64,000 nucleotides of DNA from Bdellovibrionota bacterium (GTDB taxonomy: Bacteria > Bdellovibrionota_C > UBA2361 > JAAYZI01). Position numbers and translations under genes: made by a program. The notes below the pieces were generated by a model that saw only the letters and a list, made by a program, of their open reading frames with translations, was not told the origin of the DNA and searched no databases. The stretch is taken from assembly GCA_050950765.1 (NCBI GenBank), contig JBMNIF010000001.1, positions 96,001-160,000 of the forward strand, given 5' to 3'. How positions within the stretch are numbered: the stretch's first letter is position 1; the number at the start of each line of letters is the position of its first letter. Below, in pieces: positions 23,001 through 33,414 of this stretch.

Positions 23001-25572
23001 TAAAGACCTTTTACTAGAAAATAACTCTTTTAATTTAAGCGTAATGCGTTGCGATATCTTTTATTGTGAAAAGAAGATGGCAAATTTTCAGGATGCCGTA
23101 GAAAATTATCATAAAAAATATGGAGATAAGTATCATTACCATACCTGCGAAAAAGGCACATGCCCAAGTAATCAACATAAAAAATATATAAAGCCTTGGG
23201 GGAAAAACTTATGTCAGTGTAGTAATAGTAGGTGTAAGGAAGGAACGTTTTTAATTGAAAGCCCTGATAAAGATGGTAATGATCTCTGTTGTCCGCGTAA
23301 TGATGATAAGTATTGTAAAACACTAACAGGGGAGCTTGGAGCTACTTGTTGTCCTGCTAGTTGGAGTTGTATTAAAGATCACTTTAATGATACCTCTAAC
23401 GGAAGGAAAGTCTGCTGCGATAAGCCGTTTACAGATCCTAGTGGAACTACATTTTGTTGTGATAGTAAAAGAGCCCAAAAACTTCCAGCATGTAGATGTG
23501 GTGGTAAATATCAGATCTTTACATCTTCTAAAAAAACTGACTACATCTGTTGTAAAGATAAAAACGCCGTAGCTTGTAGCGGAAAATGTTGTAACGGTAT
23601 CTGTGATAATGGTAAATGTTGTGGGAAAAATAAGATAAATTGTGGTGGTGCCTGTTGTGCAAAGGGTAGATGCGCTCAGTCTCCCATAAAATCAAAGTGC
23701 TGTCCATCAGGAACGAATGCTTGTGGAGACCTCTGTTGTGAGAAGTGTAATGTTGTTAGATCTAGTAGTGATGTTGGTTATTTTTGTGAGGGGTGCCCAG
23801 AAGGGCAATATACCTGCGGAGGAAAGTGTTGTAAGCCAGAAGATTGTGAGAGGGCTTTAGTTCCTTTTCCACCAAGTGGGTTTAAATATACTTGCCATAA
23901 TAATTGCGGAGCAGATCAATACGAATGTCCTGATAGTGAAAGGTGTTGTCCACTAGATACTGAGTGTTGTGATAATACAGATGAAAAAGGTTGTTGTCCT
24001 AAGTGCCCCAGAGGGGATGTCTTTCTTGGAAGAAAAGATAATGAAAAAAGAGATCCTATCTGTTGTCCGGAATTAAAGCCATATTATAAAGGTGATGATA
24101 GTGAAGGAAATACAGTCTGCTGCAATGAAGATGAGATTAATTGTGGCGGAAGGTGTTGCGGAGAGGCGTATTGTGAAAACGAAAAGTGTTGTTCAGGAGA
24201 TACCCCTCATTATATCAGTAGAGTAAAGCCGAGTGCCGGAAAGTGTTGTAAATTTAAGTCAGACATTCTTTGTGGAGGTTCTGAGGTGCAGTGTTGTGCT
24301 AAAGGGCAATGTACCTCAGGAGATTGGGGAAGTCAGATCTGCTGCGCTGATACTACCCCTGATGGTAAAGAACAGATAGCTTGCGGAAAAGTTTGCTGCG
24401 AAAAAGAGTATTGCGAAGATGGAGTTTGTAAAACTCCTACGCCCACCCCGACTACAACGTCATCACCCACACCAACGCCGCACCCTGAGTGCGTTGATGG
24501 GATAGACTTTAATGAGATGACGGGAGAGTGTTGTCCATTAGACCTTCCTCACTATGCTGTTAAAGTAGGTTCTAATATAGGGCTATGTTGTAAATCTGAA
24601 ACAGAAGTCTTTTGCGGAGGAGTCTGCTGCGAGGTGCAGTATTGTAAAAATAAAAATCAAGTTTGTAGAACTCCGACACCAACTCCGACTACAACGTCAA
24701 CACCGTTTTACACACCAATCCCTACAAAGACTCCTACACCGTCAAAGAGTCCAACAGCAACACAAACACCTAGTGAGACGCCGCCACCTTTTGTAACAAA
24801 AACTCCGTTAAGAACGATAACTCCTACGGTAGTGCCATCTGGGACAGTAATACCTAGTAAGACTCCGACTATTACAAAAACTCCTACTCCAACAAAAACG
24901 GCTACACCAACGAAAACTCCGACAAAGACAAGAACACCTACAAAGACTCCGACGAAAACACCTACGCCGACGAAAACCCCTACGCCTACGCCGACGGTAA
25001 CAAAAACACCAACTCCTACACCTACATGCTCTGCGGGAGTAGACTTTAATGAGATTAGTCAAAGGTGTTGTTCGAAAGACCTTCCGCACTATGTCACTAT
25101 GAAAGATCCAGGTATTGGGATGTGTTGTAAAGGTGCAACAGATACCCTTTGCGGAAGTTATGAAGTACAGTGTTGTGCTAGTGGACAGTGCACTTCGGGA
25201 GACTTGGGAAATCAGACCTGCTGCGCTACTACTACCTCTAGTGGCAAAAAGCAGATCGCTTGCGGAAGTGTCTGCTGTGAAGAAATATATTGTAAAAACG
25301 GAGTTTGCAAAACTCCTACACCGACTCCAACGCCCACGCCCACACCTAAACGGACTGCAACGAAGACTCCAAGTGTAACAAAGACACCAACGCCAAGCGC
25401 AACAAAAACGCCTTCATTGTTCTACACACCTAGTGCAACAAGCTCTCCGTTCTGGGCCTATACACTACCACCAACCCTTTCCCCGTTCTTCTCACCAACC
25501 CCAATGCCAACACCGTTCTACACGGAGACAATAGGTGTGCCGACGCTATCCCCAACCTTCTGGGTATGGTAA
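20023..25572 (+). CDS. Giant exported protein: TSP3-like Ca-binding repeats, metzincin-like protease motif, Cys-rich repeats, Pro/Thr stalks
   Basis: N-terminal hydrophobic signal/anchor; [38 protein letters not shown] then GMMG; many CC doublets; (TP)n tracts. Confidence 0.85.
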
Positions 25573-25844
25573 GGGGCTTAATAAAATTTACGGAGGTTCT
25601 TCTTTAAACAGAGTCTTACATTATTTTGTTCGTTATCTCGCAAGAAAAAATCTTAAGATCGGATTTAAATTGTTGTGACTTAATATGTACATTTTAATCT
25701 GTTGTCGTTGACAAAAAGTAGTTAAAAGTACAAAGTTCCAACGAAGTTGATTTAGAGAGGATCCGCATGATTGTGTGACGCTACGTTTATGTAATCATGC
25801 GGATTTTCTTATATCTAGCCTTAATAATATCGGAAGAGGAATGT

Positions 25845-27242
25845 GTGGCTGTAATTGCGAAAAATAATATTCATAATGAAGGAGGCTTTAGTGATAGTGG
25901 CGAGGTGTCTGAAAAGAATACTAATTTAAAAGATGTAGCTACAATCTCTCAAAAACAACTCTTTTGGTTGTGGTTGCCGCTGGTTGCGACGTGGGCTCTG
26001 ATAGGGCTGGAGCTGCCTATGGCGCATATTATGTTAACACGCCTCCCGAATGTAGAAGAAAATCTGGCAGCTTTAGGTGTGGCGTTCTCCATTTTTATTA
26101 TCGTGGAGTCTCCGATCTTTTCAATGATGTCGGCAGCCACCGTCTTAGTCTCCGATAAAAAAGCGTATTACAAGTTGCGTAATTTTAATTTTTGCTTAGG
26201 TGCTACACTTAGTTTCTTTCTAACGTTGCTTTTGATACCAAGTGTCTTTAAGTTTTTGACGACTACAATTTTAGCGTTACCTGAAGACATTCTACACAAT
26301 GTTTGGTGGGCGTTATTACTGTATGTGCCGTGTCCATTCTTTGTTGGATACAGACGCTTTTATCAAGGTATACTCGTGCGTTCTGGGATGAACTCCAGAG
26401 TTGGTATAGGAACTATGGCACGTGTTTTCGTTTCTATCGGTTCTATGCTGCTCCTCGCCACCTGCGGTTTCCCAGGGGCAATTGTTGGAGTAGGGGGGTG
26501 TGTTAGCGGTATGCTTTTTGAAGCTGGTATTTCACGTTATATGGTAAGACCCGCCTTGAAAAAACTTCTTGCAGATCCAGCTTCGGAGAATACTTTAACT
26601 TACCCCTATATCGCTAAGTTTTATGTGCCGTTGGCATTAGCAAGTATTATGGGAACTGCCATCACACCCGTCTTGGTTTTCTTTTTAGCGCGAGGCTCCT
26701 TTCCAGTCGAATCTTTGGCGGTATACCCCGTTCTTTCGGGAATAATAAACTTCTCTGCTTCAGCTATAATCGGTCTACATGATCTTATGCTTGGAACACT
26801 AGGAGATAAATATGAAAATCTTTTACAACTAAAGATATTCACAAAGCGTGTCGCCTTTACGCTTATAGCTATTTTATCTATCTTGTTATTTACTCCACTT
26901 AAACTTCTTTTATTTGGAGTTATCTACGGATTGCCTGAAAACTTAATACATTTTGCTACCGATGCCGCTATCTTTATAGTTCTGTTTTTGATCACTGATG
27001 TTTATGCTTTTTATGTACGTGCAGTTTTGATTCGCGCCAGAAAAACAGCGATTGTTACCTTCTCCAGTGTTATGTTTTTGCTTTCAGTTTTTGTTTTGAT
27101 GATGCTTTTGATTGATCACACTTCAATTTACGGTGCTACTGCTGCTGTTATTGCATTAGTAATCGGAAATTGTATCGGGATAATGAGCTTTTTACCTGAA
27201 TACAAAACTACTCTAAAGAATATTCAGAGACTCGCACCTTAA
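25845..27242 (+). CDS. MATE/MOP-superfamily (ANKH-like) transporter
   Basis: About 12 TM helices in two related halves (FWLWLPLVAT / FYVPLALAS), RRFYQGIL motif; GTG at 25845 follows GAGGA. Confidence 0.75.
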   Translation: MAVIAKNNIHNEGGFSDSGEVSEKNTNLKDVATISQKQLFWLWLPLVATWALIGLELPMAHIMLTRLPNVEENLAALGVAFSIFIIVESPIFSMMSAATVLVSDKKAYYKLRNFNFCLGATLSFFLTLLLIPSVFKFLTTTILALPEDILHNVWWALLLYVPCPFFVGYRRFYQGILVRSGMNSRVGIGTMARVFVSIGSMLLLATCGFPGAIVGVGGCVSGMLFEAGISRYMVRPALKKLLADPASENTLTYPYIAKFYVPLALASIMGTAITPVLVFFLARGSFPVESLAVYPVLSGIINFSASAIIGLHDLMLGTLGDKYENLLQLKIFTKRVAFTLIAILSILLFTPLKLLLFGVIYGLPENLIHFATDAAIFIVLFLITDVYAFYVRAVLIRARKTAIVTFSSVMFLLSVFVLMMLLIDHTSIYGATAAVIALVIGNCIGIMSFLPEYKTTLKNIQRLAP

Positions 27243-27303: not shown

Positions 27304-27669
27304 TTAAAAGCTTCTGATGAAATCGGTGATGCCCCAGACAGCACTGGTGGTGCCACGAACCTCGTTAATTCTGTTACGGATAGAATCATGACGATTCTTT
27401 TCGGCGTGACCTTCAACCCCTAAACGATGGTCTGCTACGCCTAAGACGGCATGTTGAGAATCTGCGTTGTTTTTAACGATCTCGTTTTGTAATCCGGTAA
27501 CGACAACCTGTTTCTGTAATGCGGCGACGTTTTGAGTGTTCGGAATACCACCGTTAAATGCAGCAGCTTCTGCTGTATATTGACTGGTAGCAAGTTGACT
27601 ATATCCAGTACATCCGGTAGCAAAACAAACGAGAGCAAGTGAGAGGTAGTATTGAACCTTTTCCCCCAT
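27304..27669 (-). CDS. Hypothetical lipoprotein
   Basis: Hydrophobic leader with lipobox-like ATGC; 121 aa. Confidence 0.65.
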   Translation of the reverse strand: MGEKVQYYLSLALVCFATGCTGYSQLATSQYTAEAAAFNGGIPNTQNVAALQKQVVVTGLQNEIVKNNADSQHAVLGVADHRLGVEGHAEKNRHDSIRNRINEVRGTTSAVWGITDFIRSF

Positions 27670-27778: not shown

Positions 27779-29665
27779 TTAAGCGGAGAGCCCGTAAATC
27801 TGAGATACTAAAGCATCAATTTTAAGATCTAATGTAGAGGAATTATCTTTAGCGTTAAGCCGTTCTTTTGCCAGTGCGGAAAGAGCTTCAATATGAAGTT
27901 TAAAATCTTTAGGGATAGGAAAATTGTGAAGATCGGCAGCGACGATTTTAGGGAAAAGATTACGCTGCGACTTTCGACCTTTTAATAATATAATCAAGGA
28001 GCCTAAGTTTGAATTTAAAATAGTAAGTAGTGCCTGTAATGCAGCGGAGCTATTTTCTCCCCGTTGAGAGATATGCAAAACAGATTTATTGTAAAGATAT
28101 GGCGTATCAACATAAGTAGCATAAAGCATGTAGGGGCGTGGTGCTAAAATTTCACGTAAGATAATACGAGGTCTAGTATAACGCTCTAACGGTTGAAACT
28201 CTGCTAAGCAGGGGCCGTGCTTTAGATATGACCCCGACCATTGTACGGCGTAACGTGTGATGTCAGCACCTTCTAAGTACGGTAAAAAATCAGGGCTGTC
28301 TTTTGTTCTTGAGTGATAGATATGATTTTTTACATCCTCTGCGCTTTGTGGAGGTGTGCCTTGACCTGTGGCGTAGGCTTGTAACGCAATGGCTGGTACA
28401 AAACCGAACTGAGTAATAGCGCTACATGAAGATCTTATTTTTCTTAGGAGATCTTCTGCATTATCAAACCAGAAAGTGGGGATGCGTGATCCGAATTCGT
28501 CTAAACAGACCTGATGTGAAATGCTAAAACTTTCTTTTTTCGGGATCTCGTCTTTAGATTTAGCATTAAAGATCTTTATAGCAGAGGTTGGCAAATCCTT
28601 TACTACTTTAAAGATAACCGTTTCAACACCGAGATTACGGAAAACAGGTTTCTCAAAAGTTATTAACTCATGTAAAGAGGTGTCAGTTAAGAAACGTTTG
28701 CGAATAACACTCCCGCCATCTATACCGAGCCAAGCATTAGGAACAATAAAGGAGAGAGTCCCGCCGCTCCTTAAGAGATCATAACTTCTAAGCATAAAGG
28801 CGATGTACTTATTAATCTTACCTGATGAGGCAGTGTTGTATTTTCGTAAAAGGCAGGAGTTTTCATGCTCTGATAACTGTTCATTACGTTTTAATCCGTA
28901 AGGAGGGTTGCCGATAATGTAATAAAACCCGCCTTGCTGCATAATTGCAGGAAATGAAGCTTCCCAGCTTAGAGCATCAGGGAGTTCATGGGATAGGGAA
29001 AAATCATCTTCTGGAGAAAGTAAGGAATTTCCACAAACGATATTTTTTGAAAGGTCTATAAATGGCAAATTAGCGCAAGAACCTTCTTCAAAAAGTTTGC
29101 AAAGAAGAAGTATTTTACAGATCTCAACAGTGGCTCTCTCCTTATCAACACCGAAAATTAAATTTTGTAAAAGTGTTACCTTCTTATCAAAAGTTTTGTT
29201 GCTTGATTTAGAAAAAAGAAAATCCAACGCTTCAAGTAGAAAAATACCAGATCCACAAGCTGGGTCTAAGATCTCTTTATTAGTATCACTTGTTATTGTG
29301 TTGTGTATGATATGGCGTACAACGGGAAGGGGGGTGTAAAAAACCCCACCTTTTTTTGATTCGGTAAGTGTTAAAGTGTCTTCCCAAAGTATGCTTAAAT
29401 CACCCACTGATAAAGAGCGAGACCTCTGTTCTGCGCTAAGAAGATCTTCAATAGAAAGGTCTTCCTTTGTAGTAAAAAAGATATCTGTTCTGAAAAAATT
29501 ATTTAAAGTGTCAAAAACTGCTAAAACTTGAGATGGTTCTTTAAAAGATGGTGCTGTTACAATGTAAGGAAAACGATAGGCGATAAAGTTTGCTAAAAGA
29601 AGAAGAAAAGATTGACGTTTTAATCCACCCTCTGTTTTTTTATTACTTGTTGCTTGATTCTTCAT
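27779..29665 (-). CDS. N6-adenine DNA methyltransferase (Eco57I/TaqI-like gamma class) with C-terminal specificity domain
   Basis: GVFYTP, LDPACGSGIFL (motif I), GNPPY (motif IV), FIVPNAWL, C-terminal PRIILRE...ILNS. Confidence 0.9.
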   Translation of the reverse strand: MKNQATSNKKTEGGLKRQSFLLLLANFIAYRFPYIVTAPSFKEPSQVLAVFDTLNNFFRTDIFFTTKEDLSIEDLLSAEQRSRSLSVGDLSILWEDTLTLTESKKGGVFYTPLPVVRHIIHNTITSDTNKEILDPACGSGIFLLEALDFLFSKSSNKTFDKKVTLLQNLIFGVDKERATVEICKILLLCKLFEEGSCANLPFIDLSKNIVCGNSLLSPEDDFSLSHELPDALSWEASFPAIMQQGGFYYIIGNPPYGLKRNEQLSEHENSCLLRKYNTASSGKINKYIAFMLRSYDLLRSGGTLSFIVPNAWLGIDGGSVIRKRFLTDTSLHELITFEKPVFRNLGVETVIFKVVKDLPTSAIKIFNAKSKDEIPKKESFSISHQVCLDEFGSRIPTFWFDNAEDLLRKIRSSCSAITQFGFVPAIALQAYATGQGTPPQSAEDVKNHIYHSRTKDSPDFLPYLEGADITRYAVQWSGSYLKHGPCLAEFQPLERYTRPRIILREILAPRPYMLYATYVDTPYLYNKSVLHISQRGENSSAALQALLTILNSNLGSLIILLKGRKSQRNLFPKIVAADLHNFPIPKDFKLHIEALSALAKERLNAKDNSSTLDLKIDALVSQIYGLSA

Positions 29666-29796
29666 GGTGATTAAGTTAAACGCTGCAAAAAAAACATATT
29701 GAATATTACGGGGATAGTATTTAAAAAAATGAATACTTACAAGTTGTTTGCTCTTACCTTAGAGTATGATATTAATCGGAAGAGGGGTATTTTGAT

Positions 29797-30735
29797 ATGG
29801 CAGATTCAACAAAAGATGGGCACATTCTCCTGTTCTTTCTAAAAATAGCGGTTTTTTTACTATCTCGATTTCCGTATCTTACGCGAATTAAAATTCTTAC
29901 GGCATTGATACGTTTCGGTGTGGCGTGCTCGCCGAGTCATAAACGGGTAGCACATAAAAATTTAAGTTTTGTATTCCCAGAAAAAGATGCCGCATGGCGT
30001 GAAGAGATTATTCGCAAACACTGTACAGTGCTGGCGCAGCTCCTTGTAGATTTCTTTCGTATCCCCTCTTTAGATGAAGAGTGGGTTAAAAAGCATATGA
30101 AATTCCCAGAAATGCAACGTTTTACTGAAGTCGTCAGGGCAGATCCTAATAAAGGTGCCTTCATTATGACGGGGCATATAGGATCTTTTGAATTAGCGCC
30201 GCTTGCTTCCGCAATGGGGCAGGCACCTGTCTGCATTATCGTACGTGATATGAAACAAAAAGCGGTAAATGAGTGGTGGAATGCCTTTCGTTGTACTCAC
30301 GGAAACACCGTTCTCTCTCGTAACGGTGCTGTAAAGGGTATGATCAAGAGGATAAAAAAAGGTCAAGATATAGGCTTTCTTTTTGATCAAAATGTAACAC
30401 GGAATAATGCTATCTTTGTTAATTGGTTTGGTCGTTTAGCAGCAACTTCTGAAGCTTTCGGACAATTAGCGATGAGGCTTAAAACACCTGTTGTTATCAT
30501 TTGCGTCCGTACGCGTGGTGTAGATGACTATGAAATCCCATTTTACCATGTACAAACAGATGATCTTTATAATGATGAAACTATCACTATTGATGAAGGC
30601 GCTAGAATCATAACTGAAAGATCTGTGGCAATTATGGAAAAAATAATTAAAGAAGAGCCTGAAGCTTGGTTCTGGTTTCATAAACGTTGGAGAACCACAC
30701 CTTCAGAAGATATCCCAGAAGATTTTTACGATTAA
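29797..30735 (+). CDS. lpxL: Lipid A biosynthesis acyltransferase (LpxL/HtrB family)
   Basis: GHIGSFE (HxxxxE), FLFDQ, WFWFHKRW motifs. Confidence 0.85.
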   Translation: MADSTKDGHILLFFLKIAVFLLSRFPYLTRIKILTALIRFGVACSPSHKRVAHKNLSFVFPEKDAAWREEIIRKHCTVLAQLLVDFFRIPSLDEEWVKKHMKFPEMQRFTEVVRADPNKGAFIMTGHIGSFELAPLASAMGQAPVCIIVRDMKQKAVNEWWNAFRCTHGNTVLSRNGAVKGMIKRIKKGQDIGFLFDQNVTRNNAIFVNWFGRLAATSEAFGQLAMRLKTPVVIICVRTRGVDDYEIPFYHVQTDDLYNDETITIDEGARIITERSVAIMEKIIKEEPEAWFWFHKRWRTTPSEDIPEDFYD

Positions 30736-30770
30736 ATAAGTTTTTGCAACTGAATTAAAATTAGATAAAT

Positions 30771-31245
30771 TAAGGAAGAAAACGCTCATCGAATCGCGTT
30801 TCCGTATTGTTGCTATCACTCAGTGTAAACATTCGTTTACACGAAAAAATAAGGAAGGAAACGCTCATCGAATCGCGTTTCCGTATTGTTGCTATCACTC
30901 AGTGTAAACATCCGCGAAGCTCCGTTTGCAAATAAGGATGAAAACGCTCATTGAATCGCGTTTTCGTATTGTTGCTATCACTCAGTGTAAACATTCGCGA
31001 AGCTCCGTTTACAAATAAGGAAGGAAACGCTCATTGAATCGCGTTTCCGTATTGTTGCTATCATTCAGTGCAAACATGCGTTTGCAAATAAGGATGAAAA
31101 CGCTCATTGAATCGCGTTTTCGTATTGTTGCTATCACTCAGTGCAAACATGCGCGAAGCTCCGTTTGCAAATAAGGAAGAAAACGCTCATCGAATCGCGT
31201 TTTCGTATTGTTGCTATCACTCAGTGTAAACATTCGTTTACACGA
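30771..31245. repeat. Six-unit structured tandem repeat array in the tRNA-Glu 3' trailer
   Basis: Units start at 30771, 30850, 30933, 31016, 31089, 31172; consensus TAAGGAWGRAAACGCTCATYGAATCGCGTTTYCGTATTGTTGCTATCACTCAGTGYAAACATBC[GCGAAGCTCC]GTTTRCA. Confidence 0.97.
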
Positions 31246-31246
31246 G

Positions 31247-31319
31247 TGACCCCAAGGGGACTCGAACCCCTGTTTCCGGCGTGAGAGGCCAGCGTCCTAG
31301 ACCACTAGACGATGGAGCC
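31247..31319 (-). tRNA. tRNA-Glu (anticodon CTC)
   Basis: Reverse complement ggctcca...tggggtc acceptor, anticodon arm ctggc-ctCTCac-gccgg, GGTTCGAGTCC; CCA not encoded. Confidence 0.95.
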
Positions 31320-31478
31320 ATATAGCATGAAGGGCGAATAGTACATATTTTATGCGCTTTAGGCAACCTCTGGGAGTCAGCTCAGTTATAAAAAATTGTA
31401 AAAATACCTAATGACCTAGAAATGATACGGGAAATAACTTGTTTTTTCTGATAACTTCGCTATAGTTTTGCACCGTGT

Positions 31479-31552
31479 TCGCCCATGGTGTAATGGTAGC
31501 ACGCCAGGTTCTGGCCCTGGAAACCGAGGTTCGAATCCTTGTGGGCGAGCCA
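31479..31552 (+). tRNA. tRNA-Gln (anticodon CTG)
   Basis: Acceptor tcgccca/tgggcga, anticodon arm ccagg-ttCTGgc-cctgg, GGTTCGAATCC, encoded CCA. Confidence 0.96.
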
Positions 31553-31602
31553 TAATTTATCATTATATATGCCTCATCTCCTCGCAGAGGCGGAGATTCC
31601 TA

Positions 31603-33414
31603 ATGAATTATTTTTTCAATATTCGTTTTGATACCGCACTTTTTGGATTATTTCGCTCTCGTATTATTTTACTTGTAATTGTTGCATTATTAACAAATGC
31701 CTGTTCCATCAAGACGAGCCGAAGTATTCCGCAAAAAGAATTAGCTTTAGGTAAAGAGAAAAAAAACGTTAAGGATCCTAAATTTGAAAAAAAATCTAAA
31801 GCTATGCACCACTACTTGGTAGGGCAGCTTTCTTTAAACAAACAAGATTATTCAGATGCTCTTACTAATCTAGCAAAAGCTAGTGACCTCGTGGGGGGAT
31901 CCTCCAGTACGCTACACCTGCAACTAGCACAACTCTATATGAAAGACGAACGGTTTCAAGAAGCCTTAGAGGAGCTGCAAAAGATATTAAAAACAGATCC
32001 TAAAAATGAACAGGTCTTACTCCTCACAGCAACTGTTTATCAATCCTTAGATCTGATAGAGGAAGCAGAAAAAACATATCAGAAAGTTATAAAAAATAAT
32101 CCAAACTCTTTGGAAGCACACGTGCTTTTATCAAGTTTATACACTAAACAGGGGGAAATTGACGAAGCGTTCTCTGTTTTAAGGGAACTTGCTGCAAATG
32201 ATACGCATAAAACTTTGGCACAGTATTACATTGCTCATATTTATGAGTTGCAAGGAGATTTTGAAAAAGCGGAAGAAGGGTATCTTGCCGTATATAACAG
32301 CGCAGAAAAAAATGATGCTGTTATTAATGATATCTTACGAGTTTATTTAGCTAATAATCAAACCGATCGGGCAGTTAGCTTTTGTGAGGAGATCGTAAAA
32401 AAAGAGCCTAAAAATATCGTAGTAAGACAGACTTTAAGCCAACTTTTTGTTGCTTTGAAACGGTATGATGAGGCGGTGTTACAACTTAGAGCGTTAAGTG
32501 AATTAGAAGAGAGTCCGAAGGAAAGCCTTTTTAAGATAGCTTTAATTCGTGCGCAGCAACAGAAGTTTGATGAAGCAGAAAATGAGTTTAGAAATATCTT
32601 AGATAAAGATCCGAGATATGCTGAAGCTAGGTATTATTTAGCTTCTACTTACGCATTTAACGGTAAAAATAGAGCTGCTATCGAAGAGCTTTTGCAGATA
32701 AATTATCCGAAAAAGATGGTGGCACGAGCACGCTCTTATGCAGCTTTCTTGTATAGACAAGAAGGAGATCTTACAAGAGCTGTTCTGGTTGCAAAAGAAG
32801 CCTTTGAAGCAAATCCTAAAGATAAGAAAACTATTTCAATGCTCTTGATGTTGCTTAGAGAGTGTGGAAGAGAGAGCGAGGCTATTGAAGTGATAGAAAA
32901 GTGCCTTGCTGATAATCCAGAAGATATTACATTGTGGTTTCAATATGGAGTAATCCTAAGTGAAAGCGGTAATAATGCAGCAGCTGTTGAAAAAATGTTC
33001 AAAGTGCTGGAGCTCGATCCCGATCACGCTAATGCCCTTAATTTTATCGCTTATACCTATGCTGAGAACGGAAAAAATCTCGATGAAGCTTTGCAAATGA
33101 TCCGTAAAGCTTTGGAGTTTAGCCCTGAAGATGGCTTTTTAATTGATACGCTAGGTTGGGTGTATTACAAACAGGGGCGTTTAAAAGATGCCGAAAAAGA
33201 GTTGGCGAAAGCAGTTAGTATTGTGGAGACAGATATTGTGATTTTAGAACATTACGGTGATGTTTTATCTGAATTGGGTAAAAGAGATGAGGCCACTGCT
33301 ATCTACAAAAAAGCCTTAGAGTACGCTTCTGCTGATGAAACTGTTAAAAGTCCGGAAGAAGAACAGGCGCTTAAACGTATTTCTGAAAAATTAAATAGAT
33401 CTGAAGTTAATTAG
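31603..33414 (+). CDS. Tetratricopeptide-repeat lipoprotein
   Basis: Many TPR helix pairs, ALNFIAYTYAE and DTLGWVYYKQG motifs, lipobox-like TNAC; start moved to 31603 because the ORF-track start overlaps tRNA-Gln. Confidence 0.88.
   Translation: MNYFFNIRFDTALFGLFRSRIILLVIVALLTNACSIKTSRSIPQKELALGKEKKNVKDPKFEKKSKAMHHYLVGQLSLNKQDYSDALTNLAKASDLVGGSSSTLHLQLAQLYMKDERFQEALEELQKILKTDPKNEQVLLLTATVYQSLDLIEEAEKTYQKVIKNNPNSLEAHVLLSSLYTKQGEIDEAFSVLRELAANDTHKTLAQYYIAHIYELQGDFEKAEEGYLAVYNSAEKNDAVINDILRVYLANNQTDRAVSFCEEIVKKEPKNIVVRQTLSQLFVALKRYDEAVLQLRALSELEESPKESLFKIALIRAQQQKFDEAENEFRNILDKDPRYAEARYYLASTYAFNGKNRAAIEELLQINYPKKMVARARSYAAFLYRQEGDLTRAVLVAKEAFEANPKDKKTISMLLMLLRECGRESEAIEVIEKCLADNPEDITLWFQYGVILSESGNNAAAVEKMFKVLELDPDHANALNFIAYTYAENGKNLDEALQMIRKALEFSPEDGFLIDTLGWVYYKQGRLKDAEKELAKAVSIVETDIVILEHYGDVLSELGKRDEATAIYKKALEYASADETVKSPEEEQALKRISEKLNRSEVN

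Follow-up and report, generated by a model that had tools for sequence, protein, structure and literature searches.

A tandem array of six two-hairpin units adjoining the 3' end of tRNA-Glu in a Bdellovibrionota genome

The nearest described analogue of the locus reported here is found behind the Escherichia coli tRNA gene tyrT, where distal repeats of 178 bp, carrying copies of the tRNA 3' end, follow the gene directly with no terminator between, are transcribed with the tRNA and yield rtT RNA (RF00391). A tRNA trailer may also persist as a separate RNA that possibly has its own function, as in 3'ETS-leuZ, which is single-copy, Hfq-bound and pairs with known sRNAs. The ToxI arrays of type III toxin-antitoxin systems consist of units of about 36–45 nt, with the toxin gene directly downstream on the same strand. 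REP/BIME, BOX and NIME elements are hairpin-forming non-coding units that are sometimes clustered and that are dispersed in tens to hundreds of copies. In the literature searched, no description was found of tRNA-trailer arrays such as the one presented below.

The array lies in a 64,000-nt stretch of the Bdellovibrionota genome GCA_050950765.1 (contig JBMNIF010000001.1, positions 96,001–160,000), which is called the window and to which all coordinates refer; the genome itself is designated G000. The host bacterium is uncultured and digester-associated. Positions 30771–31245 of the window form a head-to-tail array of six tandem units with two perfect hairpins per unit, and the units abut one another without spacers. 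TRF delineated the array at 30771–31236, with a period of 83, 5.8 copies, 86% matches and a score of 673, and reported higher-order periods of 156 and 239. When the array was cut at TAAGGA, the units measured 79, 83, 83, 73, 83 and 74 nt; they are numbered in plus-strand order and are assigned to the minus strand, that of the tRNA most likely transcribing the array. Unit 1 (30771–30849) is a short form of 79 nt that includes an A-rich tail, units 2 (30850–30932), 3 (30933–31015) and 5 (31089–31171) are long forms, and units 4 (31016–31088) and 6 (31172–31245) are short forms, the last of which adjoins tRNA-Glu. The gene for tRNA-Glu(CTC) occupies 31247–31319 on the minus strand (ARAGORN start 31246/31247; Rfam tRNA score 58.9 bits). 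Its discriminator A is at 31247, and a single base (31246) parts it from the end of the array. An earlier note, made from the letters of the window, had described six units of 73–83 bp ending 1 nt from the discriminator; TRF, the unit cut and ARAGORN agree on this layout.

On the plus strand, each unit starts with TAAGGA(A/T)G and continues with hairpin 1, in which G(A/G)AAACGC and GCGTTT(T/C)C enclose a 10-nt loop, TCAT(C/T)GAATC, and which contains only three G-C pairs. A linker of about 19–20 nt leads to hairpin 2, with the stem TG(T/C)AAAC ... GTTT(A/G)CA. The hairpin-2 loop comprises 14 nt with the motif TTCGCGAAGC in units 2, 3 and 5, and 4 nt in units 1, 4 and 6, such that half of the G000 units are without this motif. 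The 10-nt length difference between the two forms falls wholly inside this loop, including the deletion in unit 4, and alignment thus bears out the placement of the indel in the earlier note. The same alignment shows a linker that is invariant across the six units except for one C>T substitution in unit 4, again as first described. Units 1 and 6 both terminate in ...TTTACACGA, and the units are 86–97% alike overall.

The stem variants recognized earlier were also recovered, with double substitutions in two base pairs. Pair 12-35 is A-U in three units, G-C in two and A.C in unit 1, where the minus strand has G.U; stem 1 of unit 2 is GGAAACGC/GCGTTTCC. Pair 59-82 is U-A in three units, C-G in two and U.G in stem 2 of unit 2 on the plus strand. 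The mismatches confirm that unit 1 favors minus-strand G-U pairing and unit 2 favors the plus strand. The score of this within-array covariation was reached in 25 of 500 shuffles. Such support is marginal and the units are paralogues, so that the double changes are suggestive at most; moreover, template switching within palindromes could yield changes of this kind without selection.

Two non-overlapping perfect hairpins of at least 7 bp occurred in only 13 of 20,000 shuffles of unit 3. The folding energy of the long units is weak (z −0.76 for the plus strand and −1.43 for the minus strand), that of the short units is better (−2.16 plus and −3.16 minus), and unit 6 together with the tRNA junction folds strongly (−4.93/−5.46). 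In each of the four plus/minus comparisons, the minus strand, which is the tRNA-sense strand, has the slightly better fold. At the junction, an extended minus-strand hairpin is predicted at 31217–31249, composed of TCACTCAG, hairpin 2 of unit 6 and CGAGTGA; here, TCACTCAG from the unit-6 linker would pair with the start of the trailer, the discriminator and the two terminal acceptor bases of tRNA-Glu.

Whether the array might be an assembly artefact, which the earlier note had named as a possible refutation, was checked with DNA unitigs from two runs belonging to different metagenome studies. These unitigs (30300–30800, 30815–30888, 30882–30952, 30968–31108, 31079–31138, 31114–31201 and 31216–31700) show no differences to the window across the array and its flanks, and they reproduce both flanks and every variant-specific unit junction. 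Because two independent DNA runs reproduce the unit junctions, the six-variant structure is real and an artefact is ruled out. At least 15 studies contain the stretch.

The array fills the gap between two convergent genes, tRNA-Glu and a plus-strand gene for a lipid A biosynthesis acyltransferase (LpxL-like, hereafter lpxL; 29797–30735; Pfam PF03279, E 5.3e-44), whose end is 35 nt from the array. On the other side, tRNA-Gln(CTG) (31479–31552, plus strand) is the divergent partner of tRNA-Glu, and a methyltransferase and a TPR protein are also among the neighbors. No open reading frame is contained in the array (475 bp), and none of at least 50 aa lies between it and its neighbors. A peptide-coding array was rejected, as 83 is not a multiple of 3, ATG occurs only in units 3 and 5, and the matching frame in the related locus of another genome (G007, see below) stops right after hairpin 1. 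The eight ORFs flanking the array include no integrase, relaxase, transposase or Cas domain. No promoter-like sites were found in the array, and the terminator scan of 30300–31900 returned no terminator-like sites, in agreement with the claim that none separates the array from tRNA-Glu. The tRNA-Glu gene does not encode CCA; CCA is encoded at the 3' end of 33 of the 46 tRNAs in this genome and is absent in 13, and three genes of the CCA-adding/poly(A)-polymerase family are present. No RNase Z equivalog scored above the cut-off, with the best candidate at 51+46 bits against a cut-off of 293.

Compared with tyrT/rtT, the array shares the position directly behind a tRNA gene without an intervening terminator, and for G000 unstranded RNA contigs of low depth bridge the tRNA and unit 6. 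It differs in that its units carry no copy of the tRNA-Glu 3' end (no shared 8-mers from the last 25 nt, in or beside the array), measure 73–83 nt with two hairpins instead of 178 bp, and have no Rfam match at E≤10. A tyrT-like tRNA 3'-end copy per repeat is instead present in the 270-bp period of G007 and in the tRNA-Asp trailer of G000, both described below. As with 3'ETS-leuZ, a role for the trailer as a persisting RNA is a candidate here; unlike 3'ETS-leuZ, no target or partner emerged from a complementarity search of the genome. Tandem short structured RNA units are likewise a feature of the type III toxin-antitoxin repeat RNAs (ToxI and relatives; PMC3401426). In the array, by contrast, the sequence downstream on the minus strand is antisense to lpxL and that downstream on the plus strand is antisense to tRNA-Glu, with no toxin ORF. 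REP/BIME, BOX and NIME elements resemble the array in their hairpin-forming, sometimes clustered non-coding units, but the unit is confined to one locus in G000. The hairpin-1 palindrome of A-run, GC core and T-run between convergent genes, with both runs present in G000 and G007, is reminiscent of a bidirectional intrinsic terminator, from which it departs in its three G-C pairs, its conserved 10-nt loop, its six copies in series and the absence of hits in the terminator scan. Unique spacers as in CRISPR are missing, as are Cas domains in the flanking ORFs. The att-type tRNA 3'-end repeats of integrative elements are matched in G007 and absent in G000, and no integrase was found in the eight ORFs flanking the G000 array or in the 2.5 kb left of the G007 array. 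The view that the G000 array is neither a CRISPR nor an att-site duplication thus stands.

In G000, the unit occurs nowhere else: blastn-short returned only chance matches of at most 16 nt, and a covariance model of the long form (R2; a model R1 covered the short form only) recovered only the six units. This single locus argues against the REP/BIME-like element that had been offered as an alternative. The covariance-model search, a step proposed in the earlier note, identified one other credible carrier, G007, from another family, when 91 genomes from the order and 124 from the phylum were covered; both R2 and MAFFT placed hairpin 2 of G007 out of register, and its stem was read from the sequences and folds. 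Further R2 matches were rejected on inspection, namely one in G061 (33.3 bits; a pair of unrelated hairpins some 150 nt behind a tRNA-Leu), one in G041 (28.1 bits; an AT-rich stretch, coding-like by eye) and one in G001 (25.4 bits; within pgk). An exact 20-mer of hairpin 1 matched G007 and one alphaproteobacterial MAG in a scan of 185,579 species genomes, the latter inside dense sequence that looks coding by eye, and had no matches in metagenome contigs or viral contigs. A looser two-part pattern hit three metagenome loci, and the two that were inspected are both in coding regions. The Infernal cmscan comparison with Rfam suggested earlier yielded no family match for the array: at E≤10, the region 29500–32500 contains only the two tRNAs plus noise, with no ribozyme, CsrB/Rsm or rtT match, and nothing beyond tRNAs reached the gathering score in the whole window. 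The same holds for an array of a 79-nt family and for the tRNA-Asp trailer (see below), in which only tRNAs were found. A hammerhead-like sequence on the minus strand, CUGAGUGA, fits the CUGANGA core poorly by eye and also has no Rfam match. Complementary targets of the units and linker in the genome remain at chance level (12–13 nt exact, or 16 nt with one mismatch; E≥2).

The tRNA-Glu/tRNA-Gln pair is conserved across the order, with 38 of 41 genomes matching the query. No array follows tRNA-Glu at the loci of the 11 relatives examined, nor in the same-family genome G001; G017 retains lpxL beside tRNA-Glu with about 72 nt between them and no array. This absence from relatives marks the array as a recent insertion or expansion that is specific to the lineage.

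The G007 array sits at the end of a 10.9-kb contig, which ends inside it. The order there is a 27-nt tRNA-Arg-like piece, unit a (91 nt), unit b (90 nt), a 62-nt spacer, the piece again and unit a, giving a period of 270 bp with one tRNA 3'-end copy per period. The piece matches the T-arm and acceptor 3' strand of tRNA-Arg (22 of 24 positions to tRNA-Arg(TCG) of G000) and is found nowhere else in the G007 assembly; neither ARAGORN nor Rfam detected a whole tRNA at the locus, where Rfam gave only a 13-nt T-loop match. In the tRNA-sense direction, the piece is followed by the spacer, unit b, unit a, the second piece and unique DNA, and the block of spacer, unit b and unit a (about 243 bp) lies between exact direct repeats of the tRNA-Arg-like 3' end. 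Direct repeats with unique DNA after the last one have the signature of integration into a tRNA gene. No mobility genes lie in the 2.5 kb left of the array, and tblastn of two G007 neighbors revealed no genes shared with the G000 locus below E 1.

Hairpin 2 of G007 is proximal and hairpin 1 distal to the tRNA piece, which is the orientation of the G000 units relative to tRNA-Glu. Over hairpin 1 (stem and loop), 24 of 24 consecutive nucleotides are identical between the two genomes; the AGGA just before hairpin 1 and TTCGCGAAGC in the hairpin-2 loop are also common to both. The linkers differ, and thus the invariance of the linker within G000 reflects recent amplification rather than constraint. 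The stem of hairpin 2 differs as well, with CATTGT/ACAATG and an added lower stem in G007 in place of TGTAAAC/GTTTACA around the same loop motif. This single genuine structural swap gives the strongest indication that base pairing is important and that something reads the loops. The proposal of a structure under selection accordingly finds its main support in the G007 stem, whereas the six units themselves contribute only marginal covariation.

In two metatranscriptome libraries from different studies, contigs bridge unit 6 and tRNA-Glu and extend back into unit 4; together they cover 31058–31317 (the last part of unit 4, all of units 5 and 6, and tRNA-Glu; unstranded). Those from library X18 span 31114–31226 and 31197–31276, and those from X19 span 31058–31138, 31114–31221, 31192–31226 and 31197–31317; the bridging contigs are 31197–31276 and 31197–31317, respectively. 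The X19 bridging contig stops 2 nt before the mature 5' end of tRNA-Glu, whereas DNA contigs continue through the spacer. Neither RNA run gave a contig in units 1–3, the tRNA-Glu/tRNA-Gln spacer or tRNA-Gln, and X18 also has one contig within lpxL. These contigs are assembled, unstranded and of depth 2–4, and DNA carry-over is possible. They are consistent with a transcript that starts at tRNA-Glu and extends 190 nt or more into the array. Read-through, and with it the co-transcription postulated earlier, is likely, with weak support from bridging contigs of two studies. A plus-strand CsrA sponge or lpxL 3'UTR was rejected, as no RNA contig covers 30614–31057 (in itself weak evidence) and Rfam gave no Csr/Rsm match.

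TRF analysis of the whole 2.64-Mb genome (period ≥25, ≥2.5 copies) identified 150 array loci, 106 of which are not contained in any open frame. These 106 non-coding arrays include 21 with a period of 41–47 and 50 with a period of 73–83, the mode being 79. Clustering by sequence sorts the 81 arrays with periods of 40–90 into 53 clusters. One family has 27 members and 50 clusters are singletons, among them the tRNA-Glu array; the period is thus common to sequences that are unrelated. An AGG(T)AAAA-type motif is enriched three- to fourfold among unrelated array units but has no preferred orientation with respect to genes. Array density is 16 per 400 kb here, compared with a single array in 400 kb sampled from G040, a closed genome of another family. 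On the basis of crude gene calls (ORFs of at least 110 aa, chosen greedily), 68 of 1912 genes have an array within 150 nt on their downstream side and 28 have one within that distance upstream, and arrays are over-represented between convergent genes (27/81 versus 317/1907). The T-run motif of the arrays was considered as a terminator and rejected, since genome-wide it has no orientation bias relative to neighboring genes. The excess behind tRNAs is not significant (4 of 46 tRNAs versus 68 of 1912 crude genes, Fisher p 0.086). The linkage to the tRNA proposed earlier has to be weighed against this background. Another trailer, that of tRNA-Asp, contains three 44-nt copies of the T-arm and acceptor 3' strand of its own tRNA, beginning 5 bases behind the gene and each followed by CCTTTTTCC; here, simple tandem duplication has produced a trailer resembling that of tyrT. 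In the literature searched, no description was found of genome-wide non-coding arrays of about 44 and 80 bp.

We tentatively favor the explanation that the array is a lineage-specific minisatellite, in which a horizontally acquired hairpin module was amplified in the transcribed trailer of tRNA-Glu, where its hairpins damp read-through and shield the 3' end. The unit would be a two-hairpin module older than the array, combining an A-tract/CGC...GCG/T-tract hairpin, whose 10-nt loop is fixed, with another hairpin that has TTCGCGAAGC in its loop. Judging from G007, it was probably acquired horizontally together with some agent that targets tRNA 3' ends, and the six copies may have come from the local tandem amplification that appears rampant in this genome. 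RNA polymerase would run on from tRNA-Glu into the array because the gene has no terminator and no encoded CCA, a step to which the RNA contigs lend weak support. An endonuclease would then free the tRNA after the discriminator, with CCA added afterwards. The hairpins in series, as a putative row of weak, bidirectional terminator-like structures, would most likely damp read-through towards the convergent lpxL and shield the trailer 3' end. Against a terminator-like role, these hairpins are poor terminators, and terminators need no conserved loops; the conservation of both the hairpin-1 and hairpin-2 loops between G000 and G007 goes beyond such a need and points to a possible specific reader.

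That loop sequences are kept while one stem is swapped would also suit a DNA-level relic of a mobile element integrating at tRNA 3' ends, with hairpins that served as a cis-acting site read as single-stranded or cruciform DNA (in attachment, transfer or replication), were later amplified and are transcribed only incidentally. The patchy distribution (two credible carriers from different families among 124 phylum genomes, and G007 alone in the species-genome scan) and the G007 unit pair between exact tRNA-Arg-like 3'-end repeats followed by unique DNA are in line with such a relic, as is the motif GCGAAGC, an unusually stable DNA mini-hairpin. Nevertheless, we consider it unlikely, given that no integrase, relaxase or transposase is encoded in the eight ORFs around the G000 array or the 2.5 kb left of that of G007, that no tRNA-Glu 3'-end copy is found in or beside the G000 array, that the viral contig collection has no matches, and that the motif in the loop of hairpin 2 has been lost from three of the six G000 units. 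The RNA contigs over the trailer, the double changes that keep the hairpins paired, and the conservation in two families of hairpin 1 with its loop, the AGGA/UCCU tract and the hairpin-2 loop motif, while the rest diverges, would agree with a functional multimeric ncRNA, either a six-site sponge or decoy recognized through hairpin 1 and the UCCU(U) tract, or a precursor of unit-length RNAs. E. coli tyrT rtT RNA, the 3'ETS-leuZ sponge and the ToxI repeat antitoxins are precedents. We regard this possibility as rather improbable: there is no sign of discrete RNAs of about 80 nt and no partner gene (the flanks are lpxL and tRNAs), the linker is not conserved in G007, complementary matches elsewhere in the genome have E≥2, no Rfam model matches, including those of ribozymes, CsrB/Rsm and rtT, and two carrier lineages are too few for a statistical test of covariation. 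Cutting into RNAs of about 80 nt and a decoy or antitoxin role, as envisaged in the earlier note, find no support in this analysis.

The 106 non-coding arrays with a period common to unrelated sequences, the p value of 0.086 for tRNA 3' flanks, and units that are as alike (86–97%) as expected after recent amplification could also be produced by the process that makes arrays of about 44 and 80 bp genome-wide, with the array a neutral by-product and its place beside a tRNA due to chance. This, too, seems quite unlikely to us, because the unit is common to a different family, again beside a tRNA 3' end and in the same orientation, and because chance seldom yields two perfect hairpins in a unit (13/20,000). 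A more far-reaching reading, which we hold to be very doubtful, is that the module represents a new class of horizontally mobile structured element that homes to tRNA 3' ends and acts as a multimeric trailer RNA, and that the periodicity of about 80 bp reflects an undescribed mechanism forming or selecting arrays. A dedicated protein or ribonuclease would then read the hairpin-1 loop, the UCCU tract and the palindromic hairpin-2 loop (UUCGCGAA), possibly giving unit-length products.

The array in itself adds modestly to what is known, as a second type of tandem repeat carried in a bacterial tRNA trailer, next to the E. coli tyrT/rtT case. The RNA signal for it is weak but direct and comes from natural communities. 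A hairpin module conserved across two families beside different tRNAs hints at an unknown element or factor that recognizes it, and a preference for non-coding arrays of about 44 and 80 bp would change the reading of intergenic DNA in this lineage.

The genome that carries the window (2.64 Mb) contains 106 non-coding tandem arrays, for example at C1:454234-454725, C3:143365-143899 and C2:818714-819046; a 400-kb sample of the relative G040, a closed genome from another family, contains one. The array periods show two sharp peaks, one at approximately 44 bp (21 arrays) and one at approximately 79–81 bp (50 arrays, 73–83 bp). Sequence clustering of 81 arrays yielded 53 clusters, so that the majority are without sequence kinship, and an AGG(T)AAAA motif is common to about one third of the arrays.

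One 79-nt family accounts for 27 array loci in this genome, with the unit pattern GGGTGGCACC...CCTCCGT...CAGCCCGTTC..., and an Rfam scan of an array of this family returned no match. At locus L063, two of its arrays (C1:75895-76376 and C1:77170-77709), mutually inverted, flank a 178-residue ORF, one on each side.

The segment 30300-31700 of the window, which includes the six-unit main array, is present in public sequencing runs from at least 15 studies, chiefly of anaerobic digester, bioreactor and wastewater metagenomes; contigs from four of these runs were aligned to it. In G007, the only other credible carrier of the main-array unit, the array is directly adjoined by a Cys/His-rich ORF of 145 residues (L005:1900-2337, minus strand), located on the tRNA-sense strand; a tblastn search with this ORF found no relative in the source genome.

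Elsewhere in the window, a minus-strand methyltransferase of 628 residues (27779-29665) has domain matches of the Eco57I/N6_Mtase/TaqI_C type and is a type IIG-like restriction-modification enzyme. Its adjoining ORFs (27304-27669 and 25797-27242) have no Pfam match. The overlapping 12-, 18- and 30-bp tandem repeats of the ACTCCGACAAAAAC... type at 24669-24996 are probably a coding low-complexity repeat.

The tRNA-Glu(CTC) gene (window 31247-31319) lacks an encoded CCA, and its divergent neighbor, tRNA-Gln(CTG) (31479-31552), encodes it. Thirteen of the 46 tRNAs in the genome are without an encoded CCA; despite this, an RNase Z equivalog search of the genome gave no hit above the cut-off.

Other tRNA genes are also accompanied by arrays. 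The interval separating tRNA-Ile(GAT) from tRNA-Ala(TGC), presumably the rRNA operon spacer, contains a 135-bp unit repeated 3.7 times with 99% identity (C2:475651-476146). At locus L064 (C2:311141-311279), three tandem 44-nt copies start five bases 3' of tRNA-Asp(GTC); they consist of the T-arm and acceptor 3' strand of that same tRNA, with CCTTTTTCC following each copy, and an Rfam scan matched tRNA and nothing further. L064 is a trailer repeat resembling the E. coli tyrT/rtT repeats, in the same genome as the main array.
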